Source: Acidobacteriota bacterium (GTDB lineage Bacteria; Acidobacteriota; Thermoanaerobaculia; Multivoradales; J023). Taken from it: 64,000 nucleotides of DNA. The notes under the pieces were generated by a model, which did not search any database, was not told the origin of the DNA, and worked only from the letters and a program-made list of their open reading frames with translations. The stretch spans positions 265,768-329,767 of the forward strand of contig JAJCXR010000048.1 of assembly GCA_029263315.1 (NCBI GenBank). The letters are read 5' to 3'. Below, one piece after another: positions 439-58,874 of this stretch. Position 1 is the first letter of the stretch; every line of letters starts with the position of its first letter. The position numbers and the translations under genes are program-made.

Positions 439-505
439 TAGCACCCGAACGCAGAGCACCCGTATTCAGAGCACTCGTATTCAGAGCACCCGTATTCAGA
501 GCAGC
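439..505. repeat. 15-bp tandem repeat (gagcacccgtattca) x ~4 directly after the stop of the upstream ORF
   Basis: read directly: gagcacccgtattca / gagcactcgtattca / gagcacccgtattca / degenerate copy. Confidence 0.85.
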
Positions 506-1515
506 CCCGTCGCCAGGTCCTCCGGCAGACGCCAGTCTTGCCTCCGGAGACGCCCGAAGTCGAAATCTTTTACCAAGTCTCCGGGCGCCTTCGCCCGGGG
601 CCGTTCCAACAACCCCAAGCTGTATGCCAAGTAGCCGACCAGGCGCTGAGGACCCACTCCGGCCTGGCGCAGGGCCTGCAAAGTCAAACCGCCGTCCCGC
701 TTGGACAGCTTCTCGCCGTCGCCGTTGAGCACCAACGGTAGGTGGGCATAGCGCGGCGCCGGGCCGCCCAGGGCTTCGATGAGCTGCAGCTGACGGGGGG
801 TGGAAGCGAGCAAATCGACGCCCCGCACCACCTCGCTGATGCCCATCGCCAAATCGTCGACCACCACCGCCAGCTGGTAGGCGTAGAGACCGTCACGGCG
901 CTTGAGGACGACATCCCCCACTTGCTGCGCCACATCCTGCTGGCAACGTCCGTAGACGGCGTCGTCGAAACTCACCTCACCCGCCGCCACTTGAAATCGC
1001 AGGGCGGCGTCCGGGGGCCGGGAGGCTGAGGGGTCGGAGAAGTTGCGGTACCAATCCGCCGACAAGCCCTGGGGCCGCCAAGCGGCGGGATAGGGCGTGC
1101 CGTCGGCGCTGAGACGGGTCACCCCCTCCACCTCGGTTGGCGGCAGATCGTGGGGCGCCGTCGACAATGTTTGTAGATCCTTACGGGAGCGGCGGCAGGG
1201 AAAGAGGCGTCCGGCGGCGGCGAGGCGTCCCAAGGCAGCTTCGTAGAACGGGCCCCGCTCCGACTGGCAATAGGGACCGTGGTCGCCACCGAGGTCAGGA
1301 CCTTCGTCCCAATCGAGGCCGAGCCAGGCGAGGTCTTCGAGGGCCGCCTCGGCGGTGCCAGGCACCGTGCGGGGTGGGTCCAGGTCCTCCAAACGCCACA
1401 CCAGAACCCCCCCTTGGGCGCGCACCGACAGCCAGGTGACGAGGGCCGTGCGGGCGCTGCCAACATGCAACAACCCGGACGGCGTGGGTGCCCAACGGCC
1501 CCGTACCCGGCTCAC
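496..1515 (-). CDS. gluQ: glutamyl-Q tRNA(Asp) synthetase (truncated GluRS paralog lacking anticodon-binding domain)
   Basis: ~339 aa; HIGH-like 'LLHVGSARTAL' and KMSKS-like 'KLSKR' class-I aaRS motifs; GluRS catalytic-domain length only; GTG start. Confidence 0.75.
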   Translation of the reverse strand: MSRVRGRWAPTPSGLLHVGSARTALVTWLSVRAQGGVLVWRLEDLDPPRTVPGTAEAALEDLAWLGLDWDEGPDLGGDHGPYCQSERGPFYEAALGRLAAAGRLFPCRRSRKDLQTLSTAPHDLPPTEVEGVTRLSADGTPYPAAWRPQGLSADWYRNFSDPSASRPPDAALRFQVAAGEVSFDDAVYGRCQQDVAQQVGDVVLKRRDGLYAYQLAVVVDDLAMGISEVVRGVDLLASTPRQLQLIEALGGPAPRYAHLPLVLNGDGEKLSKRDGGLTLQALRQAGVGPQRLVGYLAYSLGLLERPRAKAPGDLVKDFDFGRLRRQDWRLPEDLATGLL

Positions 1516-1562: not shown

Positions 1563-3245
<1,683 letters not shown>

Positions 3246-3369
3246 CGAGAATCCTTCTCGTTTCTTCTGTGATTGGGTTGTGGAGTGGGCAGCGTCCGCC
3301 GCCGGTCTGATCATACCCGAGGCGGCAGCGAGCGAGAAGCGGACAGCGCAGGCCATCCCGGTCAGTCGT

Positions 3370-3909
3370 TCAGCGGCAGGTTTCGAGGCGGCGTTGGAGA
3401 AGCCACATGATCCCCCCGGTGACGATCAGCGGTGGACCTTCGAGCAGGGTCCAAAACCACGGAAGGCCGGCATGCAGGTCGATACCGATGACCAAGCAGC
3501 CAAAAAAGATGTTCATCAAGGCGATGTAGACGACCACCGGCTGGAAGCGGCGCACGTCCGTCGAGACGAGCAGCAACAGGCAACCATGGAAGCCGTAGAG
3601 AGCTGCCACCGAGCGGCTCAAGTACTCCACCAGAACGGTGTCCGGGAAGGGTCCCAGACCCAACCAGCGGTGGGACCAAGCCATCCAGCCAGTGGGCAGG
3701 AAGATGCAGGGGAAGGCGCAGAGCAGGACGACGCCCGCAAAACGCAACAGGAAGACGAGCCACTTCTCTGCGATACCAGAAGCTGCGATACCAGAAGGCG
3801 CCGCAATACCAAAAGCCACCGCTGAAGCCTCCCTAGGAAGCTCAGTGCGGTGGCCAGGACGCAACTCCGGTGAGGTCTCAGTCACGCAAGCAAACGGGTT
3901 CCGGACCAC
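3370..3909 (-). CDS. hypothetical membrane protein (about 4 TM helices); start uncertain
   Basis: hydrophobic helices [43 protein letters not shown]...; sits directly upstream of ettA on the same strand. Confidence 0.35.
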
Positions 3910-4060
3910 CCTCGGCGTAATCCGCCAGCAGGGTCAGCTGGGGAGCAGCATAGCTCTTGCGGGGAAGCGGTTGCACCAACTCGGAAACCATCGGCTCCAC
4001 GGACCGGCGGCGGGAGCGGTTCTCGGTCAGGATGGCGATCTCGTTCTGCGTCACGTTCAT
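3878..4060 (-). CDS. small ORF (60 aa), divergent from the halogenase-fusion gene; candidate small protein/peptide
   Basis: ATG at 4060 with gaggaa SD-like 7-8 nt upstream; no homology recognised. Confidence 0.2.
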   Translation of the reverse strand: MNVTQNEIAILTENRSRRRSVEPMVSELVQPLPRKSYAAPQLTLLADYAEGGPEPVCLRD

Positions 4061-4275
4061 TGGGATTCCTCGTGGCCCCTCAGGGCGATAGCTCAGGCCG
4101 GTTACACCGATATTGCTTTTGCAAGCAAGAAATCTGCCACTCGACGACCACGCACGGCGAGAACGATAAACGCTGAAAACATTAGAGTTAGCACAACCGT
4201 GACTGATAGATCGCTATCCAGCTTGACCGGACCGCAACTCGGGAGGGGGGAATCTTCCCTACCTCGACGGGAGAA

Positions 4276-7023
4276 TTGCCCGATGACTCACAGCTTTGGG
4301 ACGTAGCGACGGCGGTGAGGACGAGAGTGAGCACGGGGGTGAGTCGGAAGCGACGCTGGCGGGCCCCTGGGCTGCTAACATCCGCCCCCATGAATTTGCC
4401 CCCTGACCCGCTGCACGAGCGGATCTTCTGGCAGCGACTCGAGACTGCCCAGTGGACCGCCTGGTATAGCGACCGCACCGACCGCGACGACACCGAGGGC
4501 GAAGCCGATGCCGTGCTGTTGCGTCAGGTGGAAGGTCTGGAAGTTCTTAGCGACATCGATGTGCCGTTGCTGCGCCGGGTCCTCGACTGCTTGACGACGG
4601 ACCATGTTGAGCCCGCGGTGCGCAGTGGCGCCGACCTCCGTCGCCTCTTGACACCGCAGGTCGACGCCGACGCCCTGCGCCGCCTGTTGCAGCGGCTGGC
4701 CGGCAAGCTCCTGCGCTTCACCGCGGCACCTCCGACGGGTCGTCGAGCCGACGTCCCGGAAGCTCGCCCCTCCACACCCCCCTCTCCTCGGCTCCACTCC
4801 CCGACCACCGGCACCCTGACCATCCAACTCCTGGGCCAGGGTCCCTTCACCGCGGCCCTGGCCAAGGCCCTGACCCGACAACCTTTTGTTGCCGCCTTGC
4901 GCCAGACGGCGTTGGACGATGACTTGGTCGAGGTCGAGGAAGGGTCCGACGAAGGGTCTGTGGCAGTGGTGATCGGCGAGGACTGTAGCTATGCCGCTGT
5001 CCGCCGCTGCCAAGAGCTTTGCCTCGAGGCTGGGCGCAGCAGTCTCTACTTCGGGCTCGATATCGACGGGGTCCGCCTCGGCCCGTTGAATCTGCCCGGT
5101 TTGTCCCCCTGTTGGGGTTGCGCCCAGATTTCCCTGCTGGCCGCTGTCGGCGGTGATGCCCCAACGCTTTGCGACGCCGCCAACAATTTCTTTTACCTGG
5201 GTGCGTATGAGCTACCCGCACCGCGCCTCGACCTCGCCGCCCGCCATTTGATCGCCGCCCTGGAACGTCTGGCCGACCCCACCCGGCGCCCCTCTCTGCT
5301 CGGCCGTCTGCACCATTTCAGCCTCTCCGGCCGGGATTTCGAACCGGCGGTCGAGCACTCTCCGGATTGCCCCCTCTGCCGTCTCGTGGAGCCACCCGAG
5401 ACCCATGGCCATGCCCAGCCCGCCTCGGCGAGCTCTGCCCTGGTGCAGCGCGTCGAGGAGAGCCCTACCCTGGTCTGCTCTGAAGCAGCGGAGGTCCAGC
5501 GGGTGGCGGTCCTCGGCGGCGGTACGGCCGGCTATCTCTGTGCCTTGGCCCTGCGCCGCTATCTACCGCACTTAAAAATCGCCCTCATCGCCTCCAGTCG
5601 TCACCCGGTGATCGGTGTCGGCGAAGCGACGACGCCCCTGATGCCGCAGTTTCTGCACGCCGACTTGGAGTTGGATGTCGACGACTTTTTCGCCACCGTG
5701 CAACCGACCCTCAAGCTCGGCATCGATTTCCATTGGGGGCCACAACCCGAACACTGCTTCTCCTATCCCTTTGGCCCCCTGCGTCCCCTCGAATCCTTGA
5801 CCTACGACGGTCACCTGCGCCACGCCAGTTGGCGCAGCATGGCCATGGCTGCGGGCAAGATCAGTCTGCTCGCCGACGGCCCCAGGCTGCCGGACCTCGG
5901 AAGCGAGGTGGCCTATCACTTGGACAATCGGCGCCTGGTCGATTTCCTCGAAGGCCAAGCCCGAAAACGCGGGGTGCAGGTGATCGACGCTGAGATCGTC
6001 GACGCCGAGCTCGGGGACGCCGGCCGTTATGTCGACACCTTGCGCAGCCGCGACGGCCGTGCCTTGAAGCACGACCTCTACCTCGACTGTAGTGGTTTCC
6101 AGGGGGTGCTGATCAACCGCACGTTGAGGTCTCCCTGGGTCAGCTTCGGCAACAGCTTGCTGACCGATCGCGCCTGGGTCACCCAACGACCCCACGACGG
6201 CACCGAGGTGCCCCCCTTCACCCGCGCCACCGCCATGTCCCATGGCTGGTGCTGGAATACCCCGCAGCGGCATGCCGATCACCTGGGTTATGTCTTCGCC
6301 TCCGCCTTCGTTGAGCCACAGGAAGCCGCCGACGAGCTGCTGCGGCTGGTTCCGGAAGCCACGACGCCCCGCCTTGTCAGCTTCACCAGCGGCCGACGCC
6401 AACACATGCGCCAGGGCAACGTCGTCGCCTTGGGCAATGCCTATGGTTTTGTCGAGCCGCTCGAATCCACGGCCCTCCACATGCTGCTGCGCCAGCTCGG
6501 TTGGTTGATCGAGGGCTTCCCACGCCGGCGGATCGAAGCGGCGTCACAAGCCGCCCTCAATCGACGCAGCGCCGAGGCTTGGGATTACGTGCATTGGTTC
6601 CTGGCCTTGCATTTCCGCTTCCAAACCCACTACCCCACGCCCTTCTGGCAGGCCTGTCGCGAGACCGCAGACATTTCCCTGCACCACGAGCTCGTCGAGC
6701 ATTTCCAGGCCCATGGCCCCCTCGCCTACGATCAACAGCTCCACCGCACGGCACCAGCCGCCGATCCCCTGTGGGGTCTTGCGGGCATCGACCAAATTCT
6801 GCTCGGCCAAGGCTTGCCTTGCCCCCTCCCCAAGCCGCGCATGGGTCAAAGGTCATGGCGTCGCTACATGGCGGCCCGCCAACGACTGTTGCTGCATTCA
6901 TCGGAGCACGCCGAGGCATTGGATCGCCTGGCCGCCAGTCCCGAGCTGCGCCGAGCCCTGGCAGGCTCCTTCGTCGATCGCGGACCGGCCATGGGACCCA
7001 GACGAAGCTCGGGTAGGTTTTGA
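4276..7023 (+). CDS. two-domain protein: N-terminal E1/ThiF-like domain with two CxxC motifs fused to a C-terminal flavin-dependent tryptophan-halogenase-family domain
   Basis: C-terminal half: GGGTAGYLCALAL (GxGxxG), IGVGEATTP (PrnA 'IGVGEATIP'), TLKLGIDFHW (catalytic Lys region), GWCWNTP (WxWxIP), GFVEPLESTAL (halogenase 'GFxEPLESTG'). N-terminal half: LLGQGPFTAALAKAL Rossmann-like, CWGC ... CPLC ~90 aa apart; start codon uncertain (TTG 4276 / ATG 4390). Confidence 0.75.
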   Translation: MPDDSQLWDVATAVRTRVSTGVSRKRRWRAPGLLTSAPMNLPPDPLHERIFWQRLETAQWTAWYSDRTDRDDTEGEADAVLLRQVEGLEVLSDIDVPLLRRVLDCLTTDHVEPAVRSGADLRRLLTPQVDADALRRLLQRLAGKLLRFTAAPPTGRRADVPEARPSTPPSPRLHSPTTGTLTIQLLGQGPFTAALAKALTRQPFVAALRQTALDDDLVEVEEGSDEGSVAVVIGEDCSYAAVRRCQELCLEAGRSSLYFGLDIDGVRLGPLNLPGLSPCWGCAQISLLAAVGGDAPTLCDAANNFFYLGAYELPAPRLDLAARHLIAALERLADPTRRPSLLGRLHHFSLSGRDFEPAVEHSPDCPLCRLVEPPETHGHAQPASASSALVQRVEESPTLVCSEAAEVQRVAVLGGGTAGYLCALALRRYLPHLKIALIASSRHPVIGVGEATTPLMPQFLHADLELDVDDFFATVQPTLKLGIDFHWGPQPEHCFSYPFGPLRPLESLTYDGHLRHASWRSMAMAAGKISLLADGPRLPDLGSEVAYHLDNRRLVDFLEGQARKRGVQVIDAEIVDAELGDAGRYVDTLRSRDGRALKHDLYLDCSGFQGVLINRTLRSPWVSFGNSLLTDRAWVTQRPHDGTEVPPFTRATAMSHGWCWNTPQRHADHLGYVFASAFVEPQEAADELLRLVPEATTPRLVSFTSGRRQHMRQGNVVALGNAYGFVEPLESTALHMLLRQLGWLIEGFPRRRIEAASQAALNRRSAEAWDYVHWFLALHFRFQTHYPTPFWQACRETADISLHHELVEHFQAHGPLAYDQQLHRTAPAADPLWGLAGIDQILLGQGLPCPLPKPRMGQRSWRRYMAARQRLLLHSSEHAEALDRLAASPELRRALAGSFVDRGPAMGPRRSSGRF

Positions 7024-7219
7024 ATAAGCCGAGCCAGTCCGAATATCCCCAGCCCGTGCAACGTATCCAGCAATTGACCCCACCCGGGGCCGTTGCTAAG
7101 CTGGAGCAAGACTTTGCATCCGCAGCTCAACGAGCTCCCCGAACCGAATTCGAATCTGCTGGCGAGTCGGCGCGGAGCCCCTTGAACCCCTCCGCCCTCC
7201 TCGCCCGAAAGGAGCCTCC

Positions 7220-7996
7220 ATGTTTCGGCGTCTGGCCAATTTGTTCCGTGGCTTCATGAGCCTTTTTGTTTCTGGCATCGAAAAGGCCAATCCGCGAGCC
7301 CTCATTGAGGCCGAGAAAGAGAATCTGCGCCATCAGATAGGACGCTTCAATGAAAGTCTCGCCAACCACGCCGCGTTTGTCGAGCGGCTGATGCGGCAGA
7401 CCAAGACCCAAGAAAAGCAAGAAAGCGAGCTGGCCGCCAAGACCGCCGCCCACTTGAAGCTCGGACACCGTCAAGTGGCCGGCCAGTATGCCCTGCAGCT
7501 CAAGAACCTGCGCGAGCAACTGGAAGAGAACCGGAGCCAGCTAGAGGCCGCTGAGGTGACCTATAAAAAGCTGGTCAAGGCCCGCGATGTCTCGGTGCGT
7601 GAGGCGCAGCAGAAAATCGATGCCCTCAAGCGCATGATTTCCGAAGCGGAGATGCTCGAAGCCCAAGCCGAGCTGCAGGAGATGGCCCAAGGCATGATCA
7701 CCTCCATCGGCGGCTCCGGCGATACCCTGGCACGGGTCGAGGAATACCTCACCGAGCGCCGCGATCATGCGGCCGGACGCGCCCGCGTCGCCGCCGGCGC
7801 CGTCGATACCAACCAAGTGGACCTCATGGAAGCCGAGCAGGAAGCCTTGGGCGACCAAGCCTTGGCCGAGTTCGCATCCGCCTATGGCCTCGACATGCCG
7901 GCACCGGAGGTCACCGCCGACGCCAGCTCCGATGTCGCAGCGGCGCCACCGGTGGCGGCACCGATCAAGGACATGGGGCCGAGCGGCAACGCTTAA
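7220..7996 (+). CDS. pspA: PspA/IM30/Vipp1 family protein (phage-shock protein A-like)
   Basis: ~258 aa all-alpha coiled coil; N-terminus MFRRLANLFRGFMSLFVSGIEKANPRALIE... typical of PspA; aaaggag SD before ATG 7220. Confidence 0.85.
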   Translation: MFRRLANLFRGFMSLFVSGIEKANPRALIEAEKENLRHQIGRFNESLANHAAFVERLMRQTKTQEKQESELAAKTAAHLKLGHRQVAGQYALQLKNLREQLEENRSQLEAAEVTYKKLVKARDVSVREAQQKIDALKRMISEAEMLEAQAELQEMAQGMITSIGGSGDTLARVEEYLTERRDHAAGRARVAAGAVDTNQVDLMEAEQEALGDQALAEFASAYGLDMPAPEVTADASSDVAAAPPVAAPIKDMGPSGNA

Positions 7997-8083: not shown

Positions 8084-9811
8084 ATGGCCGATAGCGTTGG
8101 ACCCACGAAACTCGGAAAGCTCGTCATGTTCCTATTCATCATCGCCCTGTTGGCGGTGGGTGGATATTTCTTCAAAGATCTCTTGGCACCGACCGGCAAA
8201 AAGGCCGGCGATGTGGACCTCGACGCCTTTCGCGACCAGGCCAAACTCGAGGCCCCGGACACCCAAGGAGTCACCACGGTCAACGAATACTCCTACGTCG
8301 CCAGTGAAAGGCTCCCGGCGGTACAGGGGGTCAGCAACTATCAATGGGACGCCGATGACCCGGTGGTCGAATTTCCCATCAACGTGTGGATCGGCTGGCT
8401 GCCCATCGTCGCCGCCAACAATGGCTTCAGCCCCAATGAGGACTCGATCTTCTTCAAAGAATATGGCTTCAAGGTCAATCTCAAGCTGATCGACGATCCG
8501 GTGGTGGCCCGCGACGCCTTCGCCGCCGGTGAGAGCCACATCCTGTGGGGCACCTTGGACATGATGGTGCTCTTCGCCCCCGAGCTGATGAAAGACTCCC
8601 GCACCGCGCCGCGCATTCTGCAGCAGGTCGATTGGTCCAACGGCGGCGACGGCATCGTGGTGCGCGGTGATATCTCTTCGGCGCAGGACCTGCGGGGCAA
8701 GACGGTGGTCTACGCTCAGAACAGCCCCTCCCAGTACTTCTTGAACAACCTGTTGCTCAATGCCGGCGTGCAACCCGGCGAGGTCAATCACAAATACACC
8801 GCCAGCGCCTTCGAGGCGGCGGCGGCCTTTGTCTCCGACAAATCGATCGACGCCTGCGTCTCCTGGGCACCGGACATCTACAACATTCCCGACCGGGTGC
8901 CGGGCACCAAGATCCTCACCACCACCGTCGAAGCCAACAAGCTGATCGCCGATGTGTGGGCCGCCCGGGCCGACTTCGCCAAGGACCACCCCGACATCAT
9001 CAAGGGTTTGGTGGCGGGCATCTTCAAGGGCATGGAAGAGCTGGACGACCCCACCTTCAAAGCCCAGGCCTTCCAGTGGATGGCCGACGGCTACGGTTTT
9101 GCCGTCGACGAGGTGCAGGCCATGGAAGCGGACGCCCACTCCACCAACTTCGCCGAGAACAAGGGTTTCTTTCTCAATCAGAACAATCCTGCCAACTTCG
9201 AGCGCACCTGGAAGAACATCACCTTCGTCTACCGCGAGTTGGGAATTCTGGGGACGCCGGTGCGTTTCGACGAGGTCATGGACTTCTCGGCCATCAAGGC
9301 CCTGGATGCCGAAGGTTCCTTCGCTTCCCAGAAGGATGAGTACCAGACCAGCTTCGTGCCCACCTCCTACCGCAAGGTCCAGGCCGAGGCGCCGATTCTC
9401 ACCCAGACCATCCGTATCAATTTCTATCCCAACTCGTCGGACATCTACGAGCCGGAGCACGACGCTTCCGGCCGCGGTATCGCCGACACCCTCTATGACC
9501 CGTCCGTCAAGGCGACCATCGAAAGGGTGGGCCGCTTGGCCGGCCAATACGAGCGCGCCACCATCGCCGTCGTCGGCCACACCGACGCTTCGATGAAGGG
9601 CAGCGGCGTACGCTTTGAAGACGTGCAACAGCTCTCCCTCGAACGGGCCCAGTCGGTGCTGGACGCCCTGGTCAAGGAGTTCCAGTTCGACCCCAACAAG
9701 TTTGTCGTCGAGGGCGAGGGATGGAATGTACCGGCGGACCCGGAAGACGCCGGCAATCACGCCCTGAACCGGCGGGTGGAGATCTCCGTGTACCCACCGG
9801 AAGCCCAGTAG
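8084..9811 (+). CDS. membrane-anchored NMT1/SsuA-family ABC substrate-binding protein fused to C-terminal OmpA-like peptidoglycan-binding domain
   Basis: N-terminal TM (LVMFLFIIALLAVGGYFF), SsuA/TauA-like periplasmic fold, C-terminus 'IAVVGHTDASMKG...LSLERAQSVLDAL...NRRVEISVY' = OmpA_C consensus; ggagga SD. Confidence 0.75.
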   Translation: MADSVGPTKLGKLVMFLFIIALLAVGGYFFKDLLAPTGKKAGDVDLDAFRDQAKLEAPDTQGVTTVNEYSYVASERLPAVQGVSNYQWDADDPVVEFPINVWIGWLPIVAANNGFSPNEDSIFFKEYGFKVNLKLIDDPVVARDAFAAGESHILWGTLDMMVLFAPELMKDSRTAPRILQQVDWSNGGDGIVVRGDISSAQDLRGKTVVYAQNSPSQYFLNNLLLNAGVQPGEVNHKYTASAFEAAAAFVSDKSIDACVSWAPDIYNIPDRVPGTKILTTTVEANKLIADVWAARADFAKDHPDIIKGLVAGIFKGMEELDDPTFKAQAFQWMADGYGFAVDEVQAMEADAHSTNFAENKGFFLNQNNPANFERTWKNITFVYRELGILGTPVRFDEVMDFSAIKALDAEGSFASQKDEYQTSFVPTSYRKVQAEAPILTQTIRINFYPNSSDIYEPEHDASGRGIADTLYDPSVKATIERVGRLAGQYERATIAVVGHTDASMKGSGVRFEDVQQLSLERAQSVLDALVKEFQFDPNKFVVEGEGWNVPADPEDAGNHALNRRVEISVYPPEAQ

Positions 9812-9823
9812 GGACACCCGACG

Positions 9824-10873
9824 GTGAGCGAAGAACAGGGCAAGAAGAATCTCCATCGTGATCAGCGGGTCACGACGGACGATACGCTGGCCAACCCCGA
9901 AACGGGTGAAGGGCCGGTCACCGTCGTCGATGTGCCGTCGTCGGTCGAGGCTGTGGCACCGACAGGGGGCGCCACGCCAGTAGACGGCATGACGTCCCCC
10001 GGAGACCTGGCAGCGGCCGAGACGGCGTCGAAGGTCGCCGCTGTCGGGTCTGCCAGCGCCTCCGGCCGCGGCACGTGGTTGGAGATCCGGGGCACGCTTC
10101 CCCTGTGGCAAGTGTGGCTCCTGGGCATCGTGCCCATCGCCATGTTGCTGGGAGTCTGGTGGTTTATGACCCAGGGCCCGACGGTGGAAGAGCGCCTCCT
10201 GTCGCCGACCATTCTGCCGAGCCCCGGAGAGGTGGTGCGATCGTTCCCCAATCTGTGGTTCGATCGCGCCTTGACCCGCAACACCATGGTGTCCCTGCTG
10301 CGGGTGGTCGAGGGTTTCGCCGTGGCGGTGCTGATCGCTTTCCCCCTCGGCTTGCTGATGGGCTCCTTCTCCCGCGTCAAGGCCATGTTCCAGCCCCTGT
10401 CGGTGCTCGGCGCCTACTTGCCGATCCCGGCCCTGGTGCCCCTCACCTTGAGCTTGCTGGGGACCGGCGAGAAACAGAAGATCGGCTTCCTGGCCTTGGC
10501 CTTTGTCATTTACCTGCTGCCGCTGATCGTCGCCGCCGTCGATCAGGTGGATTCCATCTACTTGAAAACCGCTTACACCCTGGGGGCCAACAAGTGGCAG
10601 AGCGTCAGCAAGGTACTCTTGGGGGTGGCCTGGCCGGACATCTTCCAGGCCCTGCGTTTCGGCTTCGGCATCGGTTGGAGCTATATCCTGTTGGCTGAGA
10701 TGGTCGATATCGGCCGCGGCGTCGGCGGCTTGATCATCACCTCCCAGCGCCGTGGCCCACGGGAGCACATCTACCTGGTGCTGCTGGTCATCGTCGCCCT
10801 GGCCTTTGTCACCGACAAGCTATGGGCCACCCTCGGCCACTACCTCTTCCCCTATCGGAGGAAAGGAAGATGA
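9824..10873 (+). CDS. ABC transporter permease (SsuC/TauC-like, BPD_transp_1) with ~100 aa N-terminal extension
   Basis: 6 TM helices; conserved 'LLAEMVDIGRGVGGLIITSQRRG' permease motif region; GTG start. Confidence 0.8.
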   Translation: MSEEQGKKNLHRDQRVTTDDTLANPETGEGPVTVVDVPSSVEAVAPTGGATPVDGMTSPGDLAAAETASKVAAVGSASASGRGTWLEIRGTLPLWQVWLLGIVPIAMLLGVWWFMTQGPTVEERLLSPTILPSPGEVVRSFPNLWFDRALTRNTMVSLLRVVEGFAVAVLIAFPLGLLMGSFSRVKAMFQPLSVLGAYLPIPALVPLTLSLLGTGEKQKIGFLALAFVIYLLPLIVAAVDQVDSIYLKTAYTLGANKWQSVSKVLLGVAWPDIFQALRFGFGIGWSYILLAEMVDIGRGVGGLIITSQRRGPREHIYLVLLVIVALAFVTDKLWATLGHYLFPYRRKGR

Positions 10874-11706
10874 GCCCGTCGACGCAAGAGCTGCCGCCCA
10901 TCGTCGAGTTTCGCGATGTCGAGAAGACCTTCGCGGCCGGCACCCCCAAGGCCTACACCGCCCTCAAGGGTCTGAGCTTCCGGGTCGATGACCTGCCAGG
11001 GGTCGGCGAGTTCATTTCCGTCGTTGGCCCATCCGGCTGTGGCAAGTCCACCATCCTCAACCTGATCCAAGGCTTCGACGACGTCTACCCCCCCACCTCC
11101 GGCGATGTCCTGGTGCGCGGCAAGCCGGTGATCGGCCCCGGTCGGGATCGGGGCATGGTCTTCCAGCGCTACAGCTCGTTCCCCCACCGCACCGTGCTGC
11201 GCAATGTCACCTTCGGCTTGGAGATCCACCGCAAGGAGCTTGGCCTGAACCGTTCCACCATGGACGACATGGCCATGCAATGGATCAACAAGGTGGGCCT
11301 TGGGGGTCACGAGAGAAAGTACCCGCACCAGCTCTCCGGCGGTCAGCAGCAACGGGTGGCCATCGCCCGCAGCCTGGTGCTGAAGCCCCGCATCCTGTTG
11401 ATGGACGAACCCTTCTCCGCCCTCGACGAGCCCACCCGCTACGAAATGCAACGCCTGATCACCCAGCTGTGGCACGAGATCGAGGCGACGGTGTTCATCG
11501 TCACCCACTCCATTTCCGAAGCGGTCTTCCTCGGCGACCGGGTGTGGATGATTTCCCACGCCCCCGGCCACATCGCCCGGCAATTCGACGATTTGGTGCC
11601 TCCCACCCACGACGAGGACCCGCTTCTCGTCCAACAGAGCGACGACTTCAAGACCTCCGTGGGAATCGTCGCCAAGGCTTTCCATGACGTCGAATCCCAG
11701 CGTTGA
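10870..11706 (+). CDS. ABC transporter ATP-binding protein (SsuB/TauB-like)
   Basis: Walker A GPSGCGKST, signature LSGGQQQRVAIARSL, Walker B LLMDEPFSALD; ggagg SD then ATG 10870 overlapping the permease stop. Confidence 0.85.
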   Translation: MSPSTQELPPIVEFRDVEKTFAAGTPKAYTALKGLSFRVDDLPGVGEFISVVGPSGCGKSTILNLIQGFDDVYPPTSGDVLVRGKPVIGPGRDRGMVFQRYSSFPHRTVLRNVTFGLEIHRKELGLNRSTMDDMAMQWINKVGLGGHERKYPHQLSGGQQQRVAIARSLVLKPRILLMDEPFSALDEPTRYEMQRLITQLWHEIEATVFIVTHSISEAVFLGDRVWMISHAPGHIARQFDDLVPPTHDEDPLLVQQSDDFKTSVGIVAKAFHDVESQR

Positions 11707-11732
11707 GGCATAGCACGGGGCCATAGCAGAGC

Positions 11733-12608
11733 ATGCCAGCCAAATCACTGAACTACTTCGATTATTTGAAAGCGGCCTTCCATCGTCGCTGGCCGGTGCC
11801 GGGCCTCGGGCCCTTGCCGGTCAACTACATGGCCTTGGGAGCCTTCGGCGTCTTGTCGTTGGCCAATCCTGGATTTCTCTTCATCGGCGCCGCCGCCGAG
11901 CTCATTTACCTGTTCTCCTTGGCTAGCAATCAGCGCTTCCAAAAGGTGCTGCAAGGGGAAGCCCTGCAAGACAAGCAACAGAGCTGGGAGGCGGAGATCG
12001 AGGCCGCCCTGGCCCGTTTGTCGACCGCTTCCCAGGCCAGGTTCAGTTATCTGCTGACCCAATGTCGGCAGATTCTCGGCATCGGCGAAGCGATGGGAGA
12101 CCGCGACTTGATGGGCATGTCGCAAATGCGCACCGGCGGTCTCAACCAGCTGTTGTGGATCTTTCTGCGGCTGCTGGCTTCGCGCGAGGTTCTGGAGCAG
12201 AACCTGAGCCGGGTCGATCCGGCCGCCTTGGAGAAAGAAGTGCAGCAATTGGAGAAGCGCCTGGAAAAAGCTGAGGAAGGTTCCGCCTTGGCCCGCTCCC
12301 TCGGCGGCTCCCTGGACATCCTGACCAAGCGCCTCGAGAACCTCGAGCGGGCCAAGGAAAGCATGACGGTGATCGACGCCGAGATCGAGCGCATCCAGCA
12401 CCAAGTGGTGCTCATCCGCGAAGAGTCGGCGGTGACCGGAAAGGCCGAGATCCTATCCAGCCGCCTCGATGCGGTGTCCGGCGCCCTGGCCGATACCAAT
12501 CGCTGGATGGAGCAAAACGCCACCATTTTCGGTGAGTTGGGGGCCGATCCCCTGGGCAGCACACCCCGCAACCTGCCCACCCTTCCCCACGCGGCAGACG
12601 AAACCTGA
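11733..12608 (+). CDS. hypothetical protein: 2 N-terminal TM helices + long coiled coil
   Basis: TM segments (PLPVNYMALGAFGVLSLA, FLFIGAAAELIYLFSLA) then heptad-rich region; stop overlaps start of downstream AAA ATPase (TGATG). Confidence 0.6.
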   Translation: MPAKSLNYFDYLKAAFHRRWPVPGLGPLPVNYMALGAFGVLSLANPGFLFIGAAAELIYLFSLASNQRFQKVLQGEALQDKQQSWEAEIEAALARLSTASQARFSYLLTQCRQILGIGEAMGDRDLMGMSQMRTGGLNQLLWIFLRLLASREVLEQNLSRVDPAALEKEVQQLEKRLEKAEEGSALARSLGGSLDILTKRLENLERAKESMTVIDAEIERIQHQVVLIREESAVTGKAEILSSRLDAVSGALADTNRWMEQNATIFGELGADPLGSTPRNLPTLPHAADET

Positions 12609-14509
12609 TGAGCCGAAGGCGGCGATCGATGGAGCCCGACCCGATGAAACCCGCCGCAGCCCAAGCTGACAAGACCAAGATGCCCAAGTCGTCCGTCAAC
12701 CCCTTGGCACCGTGGGCAGAAGAGGTGCGGCAGCTCTTCCGTTCGGGCAGCGCCAGCCAATTCATTCTGCATGGCAACGTGCACGACTTCGTGCCCAAGA
12801 AGCCGCCGGCCACCCACGACGGCAGCAGCCCGCCGGAGGGCGCCCTACGCTCCCTGCGCGGTTTTCTCACCGAGGTCATGTTCGAGCCCTTCGATGTGGT
12901 CATCCATTACGACCGCGGCCGTGGCATCCGCGTCAAGAAGGGGGGCGATCACTTTCATCGCTTTCTCGAAGCCTTCGACACCTTCCGCGGCACCGATTGG
13001 GCCAAGCTGCCCACCTCCCCCGGCGACAGCCTGGACCTCGGCTCCACCTTGCCGCGGGACGCCGTCCGTGCCCTGGAGCTGATCAACCGTTTTGTGCGCG
13101 GCAGCCAAGCCTTGACCCGGGTCGACAAACAAGGCAAGCGCCATCCCGATCCCCTCAAGGTGGCCGTCTTGCTGGAGCACGCGCAGTTCATCGCCCCCCG
13201 GGCCGACGCCCTGCACCTCTCCGGCGACAACAGCCAGGTGCTCATCCAGCTCTTGGATTGGGCCAGCGATCCGGCCATCACCAGCGCTTTCGTCGCCACC
13301 TTCTTGGTGACCGACACCCTCAACGACCTGAGCCAGTCCCTGGTGGCCAACCCCTTCAACGCCAAGGTGAGCATCCCCCTGCCCGACGCCGACGAGCTCC
13401 GGGACTTCGTGCACCTATTGACCGACCACGAAACCACCTTCGACGAGCTGTCGCAGGTCAGCCGCGACCAGTTGGCGGAGAAGCTCGTGGGCTTGTCGCG
13501 GGTCAATGTACGGGCCTTGATCCTGCGGGTGCTGCGCAACCACGAGAAACTCACCCACGAACGGGTGAGCGAGCTGCGCAAGCAACTGATCGAGAAGCAA
13601 GCCTCCGGCCTCATCGCCTTCATCGAAAGCGACCGCACCCTCGACGACGTGGCCGGCCACGTCGAAGCCAAGGCCTGGCTGCGTCAAGATGCCGAGCTGT
13701 TGCGTCGCGGGCGGATACGCGCTTTGCCCATGGGCTACCTGCTGGCCGGTCGCATCGGCACCGGCAAGACCTTCCTGGTGGAATGCCTGGCCGGTGAGGT
13801 GGGCATCCCGGTGGTGCAGATCAAAAACTTTCGCGACAAATGGGTCGGCGCCACCGAAGGCAACTTGGAGACCATCTTCACCATCTTGCACGCCCTCGGC
13901 CAAGTGTTGGTCTTCGTCGACGAAGCCGATCAGGCCACCGGTAAACGGGGCGGCGGCCTCGGCGACGGCGGGCTCGGGGGTCGCATCTACGGCATGCTGG
14001 CCAAAGAAATGTCCGACACCCGCAACCGCGGCAAGATCCTTTGGGTCTTCGCCACCAGCCGTCCCGACCTCTTGGAGGTCGACCTCAAACGGCAAGGCCG
14101 CCTCGATGTCCACATCCCCCTCTTCCCGCCCCAAGACGCCAAGAGCCGGGCCGACCTCTTCTACGCTATGGCCCGCAAGGTGGGCTTCGAGGTCAAGAAG
14201 AAGGATCTACCGACCTTGCCCGAGAGCCATCAAATCGGCGGCAACGAAATGGAGGGCATCCTGGTGCGCTCCCTACGCCTCTTCGAAACCCGCGACGAAG
14301 ACGACGATCGTTCCATGCGGCAGATCATCGCTGCGGTGATCAAAGATTTCCGTCCCTCCGCCCATGTCGACCGTCTCGAAATGATGGACTTGCTGGCCGT
14401 CAAGGAGTGCACCGATCGTCGTTTCCTGCCGGAGCGCTATCGGGATCTCGACCTGGCCGAGGTCAATCAACGATTGCGGGAGCTGAAGCTGCGCATCGGG
14501 GAGTTTTGA
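12608..14509 (+). CDS. AAA-family ATPase (classic clade with SRH), long N-terminal domain containing a degenerate P-loop-like segment
   Basis: Walker A GRIGTGKTF, Walker B VFVDEAD, SRH 'ATSRPDLLEVDLKRQGRLD'; N-terminus has 'FILHGNVHDF' degenerate Walker-A-like segment. Confidence 0.8.
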   Translation: MSRRRRSMEPDPMKPAAAQADKTKMPKSSVNPLAPWAEEVRQLFRSGSASQFILHGNVHDFVPKKPPATHDGSSPPEGALRSLRGFLTEVMFEPFDVVIHYDRGRGIRVKKGGDHFHRFLEAFDTFRGTDWAKLPTSPGDSLDLGSTLPRDAVRALELINRFVRGSQALTRVDKQGKRHPDPLKVAVLLEHAQFIAPRADALHLSGDNSQVLIQLLDWASDPAITSAFVATFLVTDTLNDLSQSLVANPFNAKVSIPLPDADELRDFVHLLTDHETTFDELSQVSRDQLAEKLVGLSRVNVRALILRVLRNHEKLTHERVSELRKQLIEKQASGLIAFIESDRTLDDVAGHVEAKAWLRQDAELLRRGRIRALPMGYLLAGRIGTGKTFLVECLAGEVGIPVVQIKNFRDKWVGATEGNLETIFTILHALGQVLVFVDEADQATGKRGGGLGDGGLGGRIYGMLAKEMSDTRNRGKILWVFATSRPDLLEVDLKRQGRLDVHIPLFPPQDAKSRADLFYAMARKVGFEVKKKDLPTLPESHQIGGNEMEGILVRSLRLFETRDEDDDRSMRQIIAAVIKDFRPSAHVDRLEMMDLLAVKECTDRRFLPERYRDLDLAEVNQRLRELKLRIGEF

Positions 14510-14932
14510 CGATCCGGGGAATCCACCCGACCTTGGCGTCCCTCGGACGCAGCGCCATCCGGCGCCGTTCAGCCCGATCGGGCAGGCGAAATCCAGGCAA
14601 GAGCATCTGTCAGCTGGGGCAAGGCGCTGCAACGGGGGAGATTGCGATCTGGACCACAAGCGGTGGGACAAGAGGGGGTAGCTTCGGCGAGATGACGGTT
14701 TGGAATGGGGCCCTCTGACCTACCTCCGATGAAGCAGCCTACCCCACAGCCTTAAGACCCAAGAAATCTCCGAGCATTCTAGCGGATCCATTGCCAGATC
14801 CACAAGGAGCCTCGTGGTGCCAAAGACCGCCGATTCCGTATTATTTTGACACCTTCGCCTAGCTTTTGGCCCCGGAGGTGACCAGGCGCCAGCGGCGAAG
14901 TGGTCGAGGCGGCTCTAGAGCTGGCGACCCGC

Positions 14933-15724
14933 TCAACCCTTGGATTTTGGCCAGGGGAAGAAGGCGGGTGTCGTCTCGATGTACTCACGGTAGCCGGGAC
15001 GCCGCTCGGCGATATCTTTCTCCAGTAGGGTGACACCCGAGACCTTGAGCAGCAGAAAGCTCATCAGGGCGACGCTGGCCACCGTCCAGAGGCCACCAGG
15101 AACGGCCAAGGTGAAGGCAAAATAGCCCCACCACAGGGTGAAATCGCCGAAGTAATTGGGGTGTCTGGTGAGACTCCACAAACCCTTGTCCATCACCTTG
15201 CCCTGGTTGCTGGGATCGTCCTTGAAACGGCTCAGCTGCCAATCGCCGCCGGCCTCGAAGACAAAACCGAGGCACCACAGCGCCAGGGCCAAGCCATCCG
15301 TCCATTGCCAGGAGGCGCTTTGAGGCATCAATTGCACCCACACCAGCGGCTGGGCGATGATCAAAATAAGGGCCCCTTGCAGACAAAAGACGGTGAAGAA
15401 GCTCTTCCACCAAAATCCCTCCCCGGCCCGCTGGCGCATGTCCGCATAGCGCCGGTCTTCCCCCTCGCCCAGGCCACGCAGGAAAATATGTACCGCTAGG
15501 CGCACCCCCCAGAGGGTGACCAGGGCCAAGACCAACCCGCGCCGCGGCGTCACTTCGATGGTGGAGGCTTGAAAAGCGACGGTGCTGACAACGACAAAAC
15601 CGAGACCCCAGAAGATGTCGATCAAGCCGGTGTTACGACGCCAGACGCTGATCAGCCAAACGCCGAACATCATCAGCAAGACGGCGACGCCTGACCACAT
15701 GAGAACATCGAGGTAGTAATCCAT
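14933..15724 (-). CDS. DUF1295 / steroid-5-alpha-reductase-like membrane protein
   Basis: hallmark 'TRHPNYFGDFTLWWGYF'; multi-TM; ATG 15724 with aggaagg SD (track ORF extends to 15976). Confidence 0.75.
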   Translation of the reverse strand: MDYYLDVLMWSGVAVLLMMFGVWLISVWRRNTGLIDIFWGLGFVVVSTVAFQASTIEVTPRRGLVLALVTLWGVRLAVHIFLRGLGEGEDRRYADMRQRAGEGFWWKSFFTVFCLQGALILIIAQPLVWVQLMPQSASWQWTDGLALALWCLGFVFEAGGDWQLSRFKDDPSNQGKVMDKGLWSLTRHPNYFGDFTLWWGYFAFTLAVPGGLWTVASVALMSFLLLKVSGVTLLEKDIAERRPGYREYIETTPAFFPWPKSKG

Positions 15725-15987
15725 ATTCAATCGACCTTCCTGGAAAAAACGGTGGAGCCTTGGTGGCCGAGCGTAGGTGCGCACGGGGGACTCTTTGATC
15801 TTCGCCACCCCCCACCGGGTGGATTTGCTTTCCGCGCATTCTAGTGATAAAAGCCATAGACGCCGCCGCGCCCTCTCATCCCGTCCACGCGCATCCGCCC
15901 CCCTCGGGCACAGGACCCGGGCGCCCCGGCCCCACGCGCTTACCCACACCGCCAGCCAGTGCGGTCGGCAGAACACAGGAGAGCCTC

Positions 15988-30394: not shown

Positions 30395-32620
30395 CTACAT
30401 CCCTTCCCCGCCACCGGCCTCACCTTCGTCCACGGCAATGCCGTAGACGTGCTCGATACCCCGCAGAATCAGCAGACCTTCGGAGATCGCCGGGGTGGTC
30501 ATCACCACTTCACCGAGCTCGTTACGTCCTAGCTCTTCGTAGGTCTTACCGGCCCGCACGACATAGGTAATTCCCTCCTCGGAGGTGATTAAGAGGCGTC
30601 CATCGGCGGCCACCGGCGAGGCGCTGAAACTGGTGCCGGAATCCACCCGTTGCCGGTACAACCGTTCGCCGGTGGTGGCGTCATAGGCGGCGAGCCGTCC
30701 TCCGTTGTTGAGCATGTAGAGGATGCCGCGGTAGTAGATGGGCGTCGGGATATAGGTGCCACCGGGATTGACCGACCAGGCGATGTGGTCATTGGAAGTG
30801 GCGTCGTCAGTCAACGACAGGTCGCCACGGCCGCCGGGTTTTATGGCATAAATGGGGCGAGCAGGTGGATAGCCCCCGGTGACAAACGCCATGCCCTCGC
30901 CGATGACCGGCGTGCCGACGGTGACCTCCGAGTTGGGCGACAAGGTCCACAGCTCCTCGCCGGTGGCGGCGTTGTAACCGCGCACCGTCGTACCGTTGGT
31001 AACGATCTCGTCGACCCCATCCGGGTCGGTGGCAGGCAATACCGTCGGCGTCCCCCAAGTAGGAATCTCATCCCGCTCGGTACGCCACAATTGCTCGCCC
31101 GTCTCGAGGTCCAGGGCGGCGATGAAGGAGCCCTGGTGGATGTCGGTCTGCAAGATGATGCGACCGTCGTGGAGAATCGGTGAGCTGGCGAACCCCCACT
31201 CGTAGGACGCATCGTAGAACCAGCCACTATTGAGCGTGCCGAGATCCTTCTTCCACTTCAGATTGCCATCCATGTCGTAACAGAAGATGCCCTCGGAGGC
31301 GAAATGGGCCACGACAAACCGTCCATCGGTCACCGCCGTTGGGTTCGCATGGCTCGACTTGAGATGCCGCTTGACCTGGGGCGATCGACGGCTGGCCTCC
31401 CGCTGCCAAAGGATCTCACCGCTGAGCCGGTCGAGGGCATAGACCTTCCAAACGTGCTCCGACACATCATCGACGGAATCCACGTCGCCGTAAAGACCGG
31501 TGCGGAAGGTGTCGTCCGCCGCCCCCGAAATAGCCGTGGTGATGAAGACACGGTCGCCCCACACCACCGGGCTGGAAAGGCCGATTCCCGGAATCTTCGT
31601 CCGCCATCGGATGTGCTCGCCGCTCTCCCCCTGCCAGGTGAAGGGGATACCCTGGCCGTCCCCGTCGCCCGACGCGTTGGCCCCCCGGAAAGCGGGCCAA
31701 GGTCTAGCAGCTTGGCGCTGCGCCGGTGGCAGTGCCACCGAAGCCGTCACAGGAGCGGTCTCGGACTGAGCGTCCGGCGCATGACGGGCAAACGTCAGCT
31801 CGAAGTCGCCCCGCCGCAAGACAAAACCTTCGACGAGCCCACCTCGGCCCCTGAAGGTGATTTCGATGCCCGGCTCCTGACGTACCAAGAAAGAATCCTC
31901 GCCGACACCATCCAACGTCCAGACAGGGGGATCGCCGACCTGGGCTTTGAGCTCTTCCCCTTCGACGAACAATCTGGCCATCAACTCCCGTTCTTCGTTC
32001 CGAAACTGGCCCACATAGCTTTGCCGCTGAGCGTCGTTCAGGGTGCGAACCTGCTGCGCCACCACCGCCGTCTCCGGCAAGGCCGACGCCAACAACGCCG
32101 CCACCTCCGGCTGCGCATCCGCCGCCTGCCGCTGAGCTGCTTGGATGTCCGCCGGCTCGATCTTCTGCGTCTTCAAAGCCGCCTTGGCCAGCTCGACATC
32201 CCCCTGACGCACCGCCATCGAAAGCGCCTCCTTGGCGTCCGCCGGGCCTTCCTCCAGCAACCGCAGCACGATCTGACGATGCACCGCCGAGTCTTCCATC
32301 TTCGAAAGCCCCCATCCAAGGGGCGTCGCTTCGTAAAACGTGTCGGTAACGTCGACGCTAGCGCCCTTGGCCAGCAGCACCTCCACCATCTCCCGGTGCC
32401 CCTTGTCGACGGCAAAGAACAATGCCGTGGCCCCGTAGCGGGACTTGCTGTCAACGTCCACGCCAGCCGTCAAGAGACGCTTCACCGTCGGCAAGTCTTG
32501 GCGTTGGGATGCGGCGATCAACTCACGGCCGGAGTCCTCGTCCGCCGACGCCGTCACGCCGGCCCCAAGGCACCAAGCCAGCAGGAATACCAAGGTCAAT
32601 GCTCTTCGACGATCGCTCAT
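30395..32620 (-). CDS. secreted protein with ankyrin repeats and PQQ/BamB-like beta-propeller
   Basis: signal peptide MSDRRRALTLVFLLAWCLGAGVTASA; ankyrin 'GATALFFAVDKGHREMVEVLLAKGASVDV'; repeated W/G propeller blades; aggag SD before ATG 32620 (track ORF extends to 33013). Confidence 0.7.
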   Translation of the reverse strand: MSDRRRALTLVFLLAWCLGAGVTASADEDSGRELIAASQRQDLPTVKRLLTAGVDVDSKSRYGATALFFAVDKGHREMVEVLLAKGASVDVTDTFYEATPLGWGLSKMEDSAVHRQIVLRLLEEGPADAKEALSMAVRQGDVELAKAALKTQKIEPADIQAAQRQAADAQPEVAALLASALPETAVVAQQVRTLNDAQRQSYVGQFRNEERELMARLFVEGEELKAQVGDPPVWTLDGVGEDSFLVRQEPGIEITFRGRGGLVEGFVLRRGDFELTFARHAPDAQSETAPVTASVALPPAQRQAARPWPAFRGANASGDGDGQGIPFTWQGESGEHIRWRTKIPGIGLSSPVVWGDRVFITTAISGAADDTFRTGLYGDVDSVDDVSEHVWKVYALDRLSGEILWQREASRRSPQVKRHLKSSHANPTAVTDGRFVVAHFASEGIFCYDMDGNLKWKKDLGTLNSGWFYDASYEWGFASSPILHDGRIILQTDIHQGSFIAALDLETGEQLWRTERDEIPTWGTPTVLPATDPDGVDEIVTNGTTVRGYNAATGEELWTLSPNSEVTVGTPVIGEGMAFVTGGYPPARPIYAIKPGGRGDLSLTDDATSNDHIAWSVNPGGTYIPTPIYYRGILYMLNNGGRLAAYDATTGERLYRQRVDSGTSFSASPVAADGRLLITSEEGITYVVRAGKTYEELGRNELGEVVMTTPAISEGLLILRGIEHVYGIAVDEGEAGGGEGM

Positions 32621-32879
32621 AATGCGTCTCCTAGTGGATAGAGCCTCGACTCTACCGGAAATAGGTGCCATGCACCTTGTTGGAATGTGCGTGGCACTTG
32701 GTTGGAAGTGGTTGAAAGTGGCCCCGCAGAAGGTGCCTGCCCAGCTCACCCTCCACCTATGCTCCACCCAAAGACGCACCCCCTCCAACTCGAGCCACCA
32801 GCTCGACGGATTCCCGGAAGTCAAAGGTTCTCGGGACCTCATCGGCCAGCTTCTCCGGCAAAGCCGACCGACAGCGGCC

Positions 32880-58753: not shown

Positions 58754-58874
58754 GATGACCTCCGATGCTGACCGTTGAATTTTCAGCGACGGTTCAGTAT
58801 AAGGTCTGCTGTCGAAAAGCGCATCCTCCGGCAAGACGGGATGACCATCGAAGCCCGAGCCTCAACATCGACTA

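Follow-up and report, generated by a model that had tools for sequence, protein, structure and literature searches.

Which substrate does a tryptophan halogenase act on when a module resembling the peptide-docking part of heterocyclases is fused to its N-terminus? The question is raised by one gene in a stretch of 64,000 nucleotides from an Acidobacteriota bacterium of the Thermoanaerobaculia (contig JAJCXR010000048.1, positions 265,768 to 329,767; hereafter the window, i.e., the whole stretch that was analysed). The gene encodes a protein of three modules, namely a recognition element of peptides made by the ribosome and modified after translation (RiPPs), abbreviated RRE, an E1-like domain, and a flavin-dependent tryptophan halogenase. 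A substrate of the peptide/RiPP kind, as proposed in a preliminary description made from the DNA letters alone, is supported at the level of the protein family by a MibH-like halogenase part and by precursors beside the gene in Nostoc and in four Thermoanaerobaculia; in the window itself no such precursor was found.

A protein of three modules

Counted from the first in-frame TTG, the open reading frame (ORF) 4276..7023 of the forward strand encodes 915 residues. P0001, an identical protein of 877 residues in the NCBI and Logan assemblies, starts at ATG 4390, and the N-termini of the homologs line up with the Met at this position in the family alignment A1, which consists of the window sequence and 20 homologous N-termini and is the basis of the structure prediction and of the profile used below. 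The gene is therefore taken as 4390-7023 (table 1), and residues are numbered on the 877-residue protein unless otherwise stated. The ORF is intact and keeps every residue that is invariant in the family, and its codon bias is gene-like, with a G+C content at third codon positions of 0.77. Against the syntenic ortholog in locus L085, the ratio of nonsynonymous to synonymous substitutions (dN/dS) is 0.21 overall, 0.17 in the halogenase part and 0.30 in the E1-like part, with values of 0.04 to 0.15 for the neighboring genes; all these figures are approximate since dS is about 1.1, that is, near saturation. The fusion gene is under purifying selection. The ORF of 4276-7023 and all the motifs quoted in the preliminary description were found again, each at verified coordinates. 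The possibility, raised there, of a frameshift-joined pair is ruled out by more than 100 proteins of about 800-880 residues, which cover ~90% of the query at 38-47% identity, and by 37 loci with the fusion in three phyla.

Table 1. Coordinates of the fusion gene, its modules and motifs, its neighbors, and the peptide ORFs downstream of related fusion genes
Feature	Sequence	Coordinates	Strand	Remarks
Fusion gene	window	4390-7023	+	877 aa + stop; ATG 4390 likely start; TTG 4276 gives the maximal ORF
RRE, PqqD-like winged helix	window	4390-4725	+	predicted; residues 1-112
Disordered linker, Pro/Ser/Thr-rich	window	4726-4812	+	residues 113-141; gappy and unconserved in A1; low pLDDT
E1-like domain (ThiF/MoeB/MccB fold)	window	4813-5409	+	residues 142-340
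Rossmann-like LLGQGPFTAALAKAL	window	4828-4872	+	residues 147-161; strand 1, loop and helix A of the E1-like domain in the model
First CxxC, CWGC	window	5110-5121	+	Cys241, Cys244; invariant in alignments A1 and A2; aligns with GCWHC of TruD
Second CxxC, CPLC	window	5368-5379	+	Cys327, Cys330; invariant in A1 and A2; aligns with QCPTC of TruD
MibH-like flavin-dependent tryptophan halogenase domain	window	5500-7020	+	residues 371-877; match to PF04820 and 5UAO
FAD-binding GxGxxG, GGGTAG	window	5515-5532	+	residues 376-381; G376, G377, G378, A380 and G381 family-invariant
IGVGEATTP	window	5611-5637	+	coordinates verified
Presumed catalytic Lys442 in TLKLGI (TLKLGIDFHW)	window	5713-5715	+	family-invariant
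GWCWNTP, variant of WxWxIP	window	6244-6264	+	residues 619-625; G619, W620, C621, W622, T624 and P625 family-invariant
GFVEPLESTAL with conserved Glu689	window	6445-6477	+	residues 686-697 family-invariant
GluQ-RS-like gene	window	496-1515	-	
ABC-F ATPase	window	1563-3356	-	
Small membrane protein	window	3370-3909	-	~149 aa
60-aa ORF (MNVTQNEIAIL...)	window	3878-4060	-	
pspA	window	7220-7996		next to the fusion gene; followed by an OmpA-linked ABC transport system
Downstream peptide ORF	L012	12399-12620		
Downstream peptide ORF	L018	14718-14948		
Downstream peptide ORF	L023	12270-12497		
Downstream peptide ORF	L026	12691-12885		

The C-terminal part of about 500 residues, in which the signatures of tryptophan halogenases had been recognized, matches the Pfam family Trp_halogenase (PF04820) with 353.5 bits (cutoff 21, E 2.4e-105) over profile positions 1-445 of 458, the match spanning residues 409-848 of the 915-residue translation. 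Judged by sequence, its assignment to the halogenases is beyond doubt. The closest relative of solved structure is 5UAO (E 5.8e-108), whereas RebH, PrnA, Thal, and other halogenases of free tryptophan match at 3e-54 or weaker. This entry is the structure of MibH, the enzyme that chlorinates Trp4 in the lanthipeptide NAI-107 and with which the window protein shares 42% identity over 485 residues. This similarity places the halogenase half with the peptide-modifying, MibH-like kind, the activity being predicted.

The single motifs agree with this placement, their invariance referring to 20 members of the family. In the pairwise alignment, Lys442 falls on the Lys of PTWKLGI in MibH (chain position 102). 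The segment WCWNTP (residues 620-625) retains both Trp and the Pro of WxWxIP with Thr in the place of Ile, the MibH counterpart being GWCWTIP, and at the aligned position of GFVEPLESTAL MibH has AFVEPLESSGL. The conserved Glu of the VEPLES region presumably has the role in halogenation known from PrnA and RebH. The predicted module is complete, comprising the motif for flavin adenine dinucleotide (FAD), Lys442, the WxWxxP variant, and Glu689. The conserved Lys of this class of halogenases directs hypohalous acid, which is formed from FADH2, O2, and halide, onto the Trp, as described in the paper on ChlH.

The N-terminal extension had been described as a part of ~400 residues. The extension is real, but it measures ~370 residues and is made up of two domains and a disordered linker. 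The model of the N-terminal region is confident, with a predicted local distance difference test score (pLDDT) of 83.9 and a predicted template modeling score (pTM) of 0.82; the full-length AlphaFold2 model (pTM 0.60) is too uncertain for the packing of the domains. Within the linker, the pLDDT is below 50 for residues 134-139 in the N-terminal model and, in the full-length one, for residues 117-139.

In the model, residues 1-112 form three helices on a small beta-sheet, like the RREs of solved structure. Searches with the family models PF05402 and TIGR03859 gave no match for the window protein itself; the former is present in three homologs and the latter in one. Because a sister species lacks the RRE, that of the window was tested in a noncircular way with a profile from the other 20 sequences, which excluded the window sequence. 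This profile scored 35.1 bits against the first 125 residues of the window protein, the best of 1000 shuffles reaching 13.4. Model and profile alike point to a first module with the fold and sequence of a PqqD-type RRE.

When the A1 profile was compared with the sequences of the PDB, TruD was retrieved at E 2e-13 (chain residues 40-330), LynD at 1.4e-8, and MccB at 1.6e-3, the match to MccB being restricted to the second half of the E1-like domain. All 21 members of the alignment match TIGR03882, “TOMM precursor leader peptide-binding protein,” at E <= 0.01, with 7.6e-11 as the best value, and the NCBI pipeline gives this name to at least one member of the family. On these matches, modules 1 and 2 correspond by homology to the first two domains of TruD and LynD. 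The suspected resemblance of the N-terminal part to E1-like docking domains of thiazole/oxazole-modified microcin (TOMM) synthesis is thus borne out by the TruD, LynD, and TIGR03882 matches, and an unrelated fold is ruled out.

In module 2, an E1-like Rossmann domain, four Cys are invariant and the ATP-binding glycine loop is degenerate. The nucleotide loop GxGxxG is not conserved: the family consensus reads LGxGxxA, only G151 is conserved at 90% or more, and the window has LLGQGPFT. Of the features of catalytic E1 enzymes such as ThiF, MoeB, and MccB, the four-Cys motif CxxC...CxxC is therefore present and the glycine-rich ATP loop is missing. Since the loop is not conserved, the domain is regarded as probably a noncatalytic scaffold, as in the heterocyclase proteins TruD, LynD, and McbB. 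The CxxC pairs are presumed to form the structural Zn(Cys)4 site of the E1 fold. The region bearing these pairs had been taken for the peptide-recruiting domain; this holds as far as a docking module is concerned, but the RRE was overlooked and the pairs are read here as structural. The element most likely to bind a leader is the RRE (residues 1-112), the binding being predicted.

Distribution of the fusion and candidate precursor peptides

The homologs come mostly from metagenome-assembled genomes (MAGs) of Acidobacteriota, Thermoanaerobaculia, and Holophagae, and in ~95 of the 120 listed homologs the two CxxC motifs are ~83 residues apart. Across the family, neither the four Cys nor any catalytic motif of the halogenase varies. 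When one genome per species was scanned, 80 loci were obtained, and 37 of those examined hold the fusion. Among them are 11 loci of Nostoc and Aliinostoc, several of which belong to strains in culture, and a Polyangiaceae contig with two copies. On this contig (L083, a MAG), the paralogous fusions lie at 9434-11992 (+) and 13014-15788 (-), beside an adenylate/guanylate cyclase gene. In a neighbor-joining tree without support values, the acidobacterial fusions form one clade, in which the window protein has a long branch, and the Nostoc and myxobacterial fusions form another clade, nearer to MibH. Other extensions of MibH-like halogenases also occur. P0120 (588 aa) is fused to an RRE alone, without the E1-like domain; P0110 (1314 aa) has an extension of ~800 residues with a 2-oxoglutarate-Fe(II) oxygenase domain (PF13640); and those of L028 and L048 carry extensions of ~900 residues without CxxC motifs.

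An exhaustive profile search with the N-terminal modules retrieved 355 representatives (clustered at 50% identity) at E <= 1e-10. Among the top 150, 59 have the halogenase, ~30 are stand-alone proteins of ~310-390 aa, and ~30 are proteins of 718-820 aa without halogenase; a C-terminal YcaO domain was found in all seven long nonhalogenase proteins tested. By these matches, RRE/E1-like-YcaO fusions are the nearest nonhalogenase relatives of the module pair. It looks as if a heterocyclase of the TruD/LynD type had its YcaO exchanged for a MibH-like halogenase, which is the simplest reading of the sequences. TruD, LynD, and PatD, which consist of RRE, E1-like domain, and YcaO, share the docking module with the window protein but carry the ATP-dependent YcaO at the C-terminus where the latter has a flavin halogenase. 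McbB and the Ocin-ThiF-like proteins, for instance PbtF, work as subunits of their own beside YcaO or dehydrogenase partners, whereas the module of the window protein is covalently fused to the halogenase. MccB, MoeB, and ThiF, on the contrary, are catalytic adenylating E1 enzymes, whose glycine-rich loop is not conserved in the fusion family.

Candidate precursor peptides are found beside several fusion genes. In Aliinostoc sp. HNIBRCY26 (locus L077, NZ_CP189852, 1323-19485), a gene for a stand-alone halogenase of 500 aa precedes and overlaps the fusion gene. The cluster also contains Lant_dehydr_N and Lant_dehydr_C (a split LanB), YcaO, TfuA, two proteins of the metallo-beta-lactamase fold, and a cupin/JmjC protein; a GmrSD restriction enzyme is inserted in it. 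Between YcaO and Lant_dehydr_C lies an ORF of 121 aa, the leader of which ends in ...ELESVAGG and is followed by the core LASSDTPKSTIMCCW. This precursor is kept in at least eight Nostoc loci and its core ends in MCCW in every case. The cluster recurs in ten other Nostoc loci (L047, L049, L051-L054, L062, L067, L076, and L079). The RiPP cluster of Nostoc and Aliinostoc is apparently undescribed.

In four Thermoanaerobaculia loci (L012, L018, L023, and L026), an ORF of 72-77 aa (“peptide A”) is located downstream of the fusion gene, at 160-210 nt from its stop in L012, L023, and L026 and at ~2.5 kb in L018. The leader has the form KKKLTL-ETLAHLE and the core is rich in Cys and Trp (...CTDWxTC...CDTCPPWC...). 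In L023, there is an ATP-binding cassette (ABC) exporter upstream and, downstream, an S9 prolyl oligopeptidase; another modifying enzyme was not recognizable. A further candidate was found in L006, a MAG of the Acanthopleuribacteraceae, where a double-glycine ORF (~12270-12500, +; ...DDDELEGVAGG|LALATERNDTSGCCGSTEGTGTCAGPTPTSGCCGTAIE) lies ~600 nt downstream of the fusion gene. Fusion genes are also adjoined by ORFs of 63-69 aa in L025 (2486-2677, -) and L026 (9539-9748, -), which read ...AWDLWFDLAQ...DPPW/YTHGVF... and match no family.

The known halogenases of RiPPs provide the frame for these peptides. MibH, the Trp-5 chlorinase of NAI-107, acts after removal of the leader and on the mature lanthipeptide only; ChlH of chlorolassin, 58% identical to MibH, is leader-independent. 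Both are halogenases of peptide Trp that need a separate flavin reductase, and their motifs align with those of the window halogenase. MibH, with a PDB chain of 541 residues, has no N-terminal docking module, whereas the window protein has 370 additional residues (RRE and E1-like domain). On the other hand, SrpI and MppI are leader-dependent RiPP brominases acting on precursors of the nitrile hydratase leader peptide and Nif11 types. According to its authors, SrpI carries no RRE within its own chain and depends on none supplied in trans; the enzyme binds the LxxxxL motif of the leader directly and modifies only the C-terminal Trp, as in SrpE, whose core LCCCW is brominated at the terminal Trp. 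MppI needs the leader on its cognate macrocyclized substrate. The Nostoc precursor beside the fusion resembles SrpE in its MCCW end and MppE in its Nif11 leader.

The literature searched yielded no account of a halogenase fused to an RRE or an E1-like domain, most papers of subscription journals having been outside reach; neither a review of peptide halogenation nor a survey of RREs, both from 2025, mentions such a fusion, and sequence searches of the PDB gave no solved structure with this architecture. The parts are known, namely peptide-Trp halogenases and RRE/E1-like-YcaO fusions. Their combination was not found described, and a prior description is possible.

The gene in its genomic surroundings

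The neighbors of the fusion gene in the window are housekeeping genes (table 1), and scans for tRNAs and Rfam families detected no elements in the window. The gene sits alone in a slot between pspA and the 60-aa ORF (~4141-7039), the content of which differs between close relatives. In the window the full gene stands there, and in L085 an RRE-less version; the slot of L086 is occupied by an unrelated, secreted-looking ORF of 249 aa with no remnant of a halogenase, and on the contig of P0254 it is reduced to ~480 nt. Around ~4141-7039, no insertion scars or signs of mobile elements were found, only short chance-like repeats, and the matches to promoters and terminators were no better than those in shuffled sequence.

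The 60-aa ORF was considered as a dedicated substrate and rejected. Its product has no Trp, its three homologs belong to the same narrow lineage, and in two relatives it stands beside pspA without the halogenase. The codon bias of the ORF is gene-like, its product has a YxxPxL-like motif and a GG pair, and the dN/dS of the ORF against L085 is 0.19. The three homologs are all that was found among 5.8 billion protein clusters, and no known family is matched. Over its last 19 residues, the product does not differ between the window, P0254, and L085/P0256; P0255 has the single substitution A49G. Together with the ORF of the membrane protein it forms a conserved, lineage-restricted pair that is not linked to the halogenase.

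Elsewhere in the window, a group of the lipid-modification type extends over ~25100-45800. It includes a protein like beta-ketoacyl synthases, a radical SAM protein with Radical_SAM_C, an acyltransferase, a short-chain dehydrogenase/reductase, two methyltransferases like cyclopropane-fatty-acid synthases, and an amine oxidase like phytoene desaturases, with a DUF1295 protein further upstream (14933-15976). Three large proteins are probably secreted: one of 872 aa with ankyrin repeats and a PQQ-like beta-propeller (30395-33013, -), a metallopeptidase of the M36 fungalysin type (49038-51194, +), and an InhA-like protein with MAM domain (56168-58834, -).

Leader docking weighed against other roles

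The reading favored here, which we consider fairly probable, is that of a peptide tryptophan halogenase in which the RRE docks the leader, the E1-like domain is a zinc-stabilized scaffold or dimerization unit, and the MibH-like domain halogenates a Trp of the tethered core. In detail, the leader of the ribosomally made precursor would join the captor RRE as an additional beta-strand, the part of the E1-like domain would be noncatalytic, and the tethered core would be presented to the halogenase domain. Hypohalous acid would arise there from O2, chloride or bromide, and the FADH2 delivered by a separate reductase, and Lys442 would direct it onto the indole of the Trp.

Several results weigh against this proposal. 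Peptide binding, zinc binding, and halogenation are all predictions from sequence and model. The window protein scores 21.6 bits (E 2e-4) with TIGR03882, under the curated cutoff of 36.9; it has the homology and fold to TruD, LynD, and McbB that mark this family, and no YcaO partner, fused or adjacent. Owing to the low score and the missing partner, the protein is described as “built from” the heterocyclase docking module and not as a TOMM C-protein. The precursors call for caution as well. The leader of the 121-aa ORF of L077 is Nif11-like at 26.5 bits with TIGR03798, under the cutoff of 32.3, and the KKKLTL-ETLAHLE leader gives a weak score with the class I lanthipeptide model NF038153 (20.3 bits, under the cutoff of 22). 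The core of the L006 precursor is rich in Cys and has no Trp. P0261 joins the peptide A leader to a different core in a locus without halogenase, hence this leader type is not exclusive to fusion clusters. In ~20 other acidobacterial fusion loci there is no recognizable precursor or conserved neighbor, and generic ABC ATPases were the sole conserved neighbors when the ORFs of the acidobacterial loci were clustered all against all.

The window belongs to these silent cases. A search of the neighborhood, which had been recommended as a check, yielded no precursor, YcaO, or dedicated transporter in this genome's window. In detail, the 64 kb contain no precursor-like ORF, YcaO, LanB/C/M, ABC exporter with C39 peptidase, or flavin reductase, and neither peptide A nor the Nostoc precursor nor double-glycine leader ends were detected in them. 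A RiPP cluster with a Trp-containing precursor is absent from the window and present in Nostoc and in the four Thermoanaerobaculia relatives. The putative substrate of the window gene must be encoded elsewhere. In the close relatives, P0002, the ortholog from the sister species, which is 69% identical to the window protein and lies on the fully syntenic contig L085 together with the 60-aa ORF, starts at the E1-like domain with no room upstream for an RRE, and leader docking may thus be dispensable in the lineage of the window. Two further relatives have no fusion gene at all.

These facts bear unequally on the other explanations. The one with most weight, although unlikely, is a peptide or protein Trp halogenase that works independently of a leader like MibH and ChlH, the RRE/E1-like part being an inherited structural or oligomerization appendage in the lineage. 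Its strongest argument is the RRE-less P0002, which keeps an intact, constrained E1-like domain and halogenase; the leader independence of MibH and ChlH themselves, which also speaks against leader docking, the lack of a cis-encoded precursor, and the faster evolution of the E1-like part (dN/dS 0.30 versus 0.17 in the halogenase) point in the same direction. However, the window protein keeps a recognizable and confidently modeled RRE, and the module is kept across three phyla, near precursors in Nostoc and Thermoanaerobaculia. A halogenase of free Trp or of a small molecule, with a regulatory or localizing extension, would suit the housekeeping context, the missing biosynthetic cluster, and the commonest database name, “tryptophan 7-halogenase.” It is nevertheless improbable, given that the protein is nearer to MibH than to RebH, PrnA, and Thal by ~50 orders of magnitude in E-value, that its extension is homologous to peptide-docking modules, and that members of the family adjoin precursor peptides.

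A bifunctional enzyme whose E1-like domain adenylates the same peptide that the halogenase modifies, after the manner of MccB, PaaA, and other ThiF-like RiPP enzymes, is very unlikely: a conserved GxGxxG loop is missing, only G151 reaching 90% and the window having GQGPFT, and the best sequence relatives are domains of the TruD/LynD type. That the gene is a nonfunctional relic, an accessory gene in the course of loss, is equally remote. The slot is variable among close relatives and the gene has a long branch in the tree, as a relic might, but the ORF of 877 aa is intact, with all family-invariant residues, a gene-like codon bias, and a dN/dS of 0.21.

Site-selective halogenation of peptides is wanted for cross-coupling chemistry and for drug leads, and the few RiPP halogenases that have been characterized do not lend themselves readily to new targets. 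With an RRE of its own, a halogenase would obey the modular scheme of “leader in, modification out,” to which the cyanobactin heterocyclases owe their engineerability. The fusion is missed when architectures are mined by Pfam, because only PF04820 is reported for these proteins. Since cultured Nostoc and Aliinostoc members have an obvious precursor, the idea is directly testable.

A wider proposal is offered only tentatively, as a possibility that is more doubtful than the docking itself. The RRE/E1-like cassette may have been adopted by a halogenase as a portable module for leader recognition, which would constitute an unrecognized RiPP route. Compact clusters of Thermoanaerobaculia (ABC exporter, fusion, precursor rich in Cys and Trp, and S9 peptidase) would have the fusion as their sole modifying enzyme and lead to halogenated disulfide-rich peptides; the fusion of Nostoc would treat the ...MCCW peptides jointly with YcaO-TfuA and the split LanB; and the orphans, such as that of the window, would modify in trans precursors or proteins whose genes lie elsewhere. 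If this is right, the fusion would be the first peptide halogenase that is naturally RRE-guided and hence re-programmable. In the genome of the window the significance is smaller, that of an orphan accessory gene. The family as a whole shows an exchange of domains, from YcaO to halogenase, on a conserved docking scaffold.

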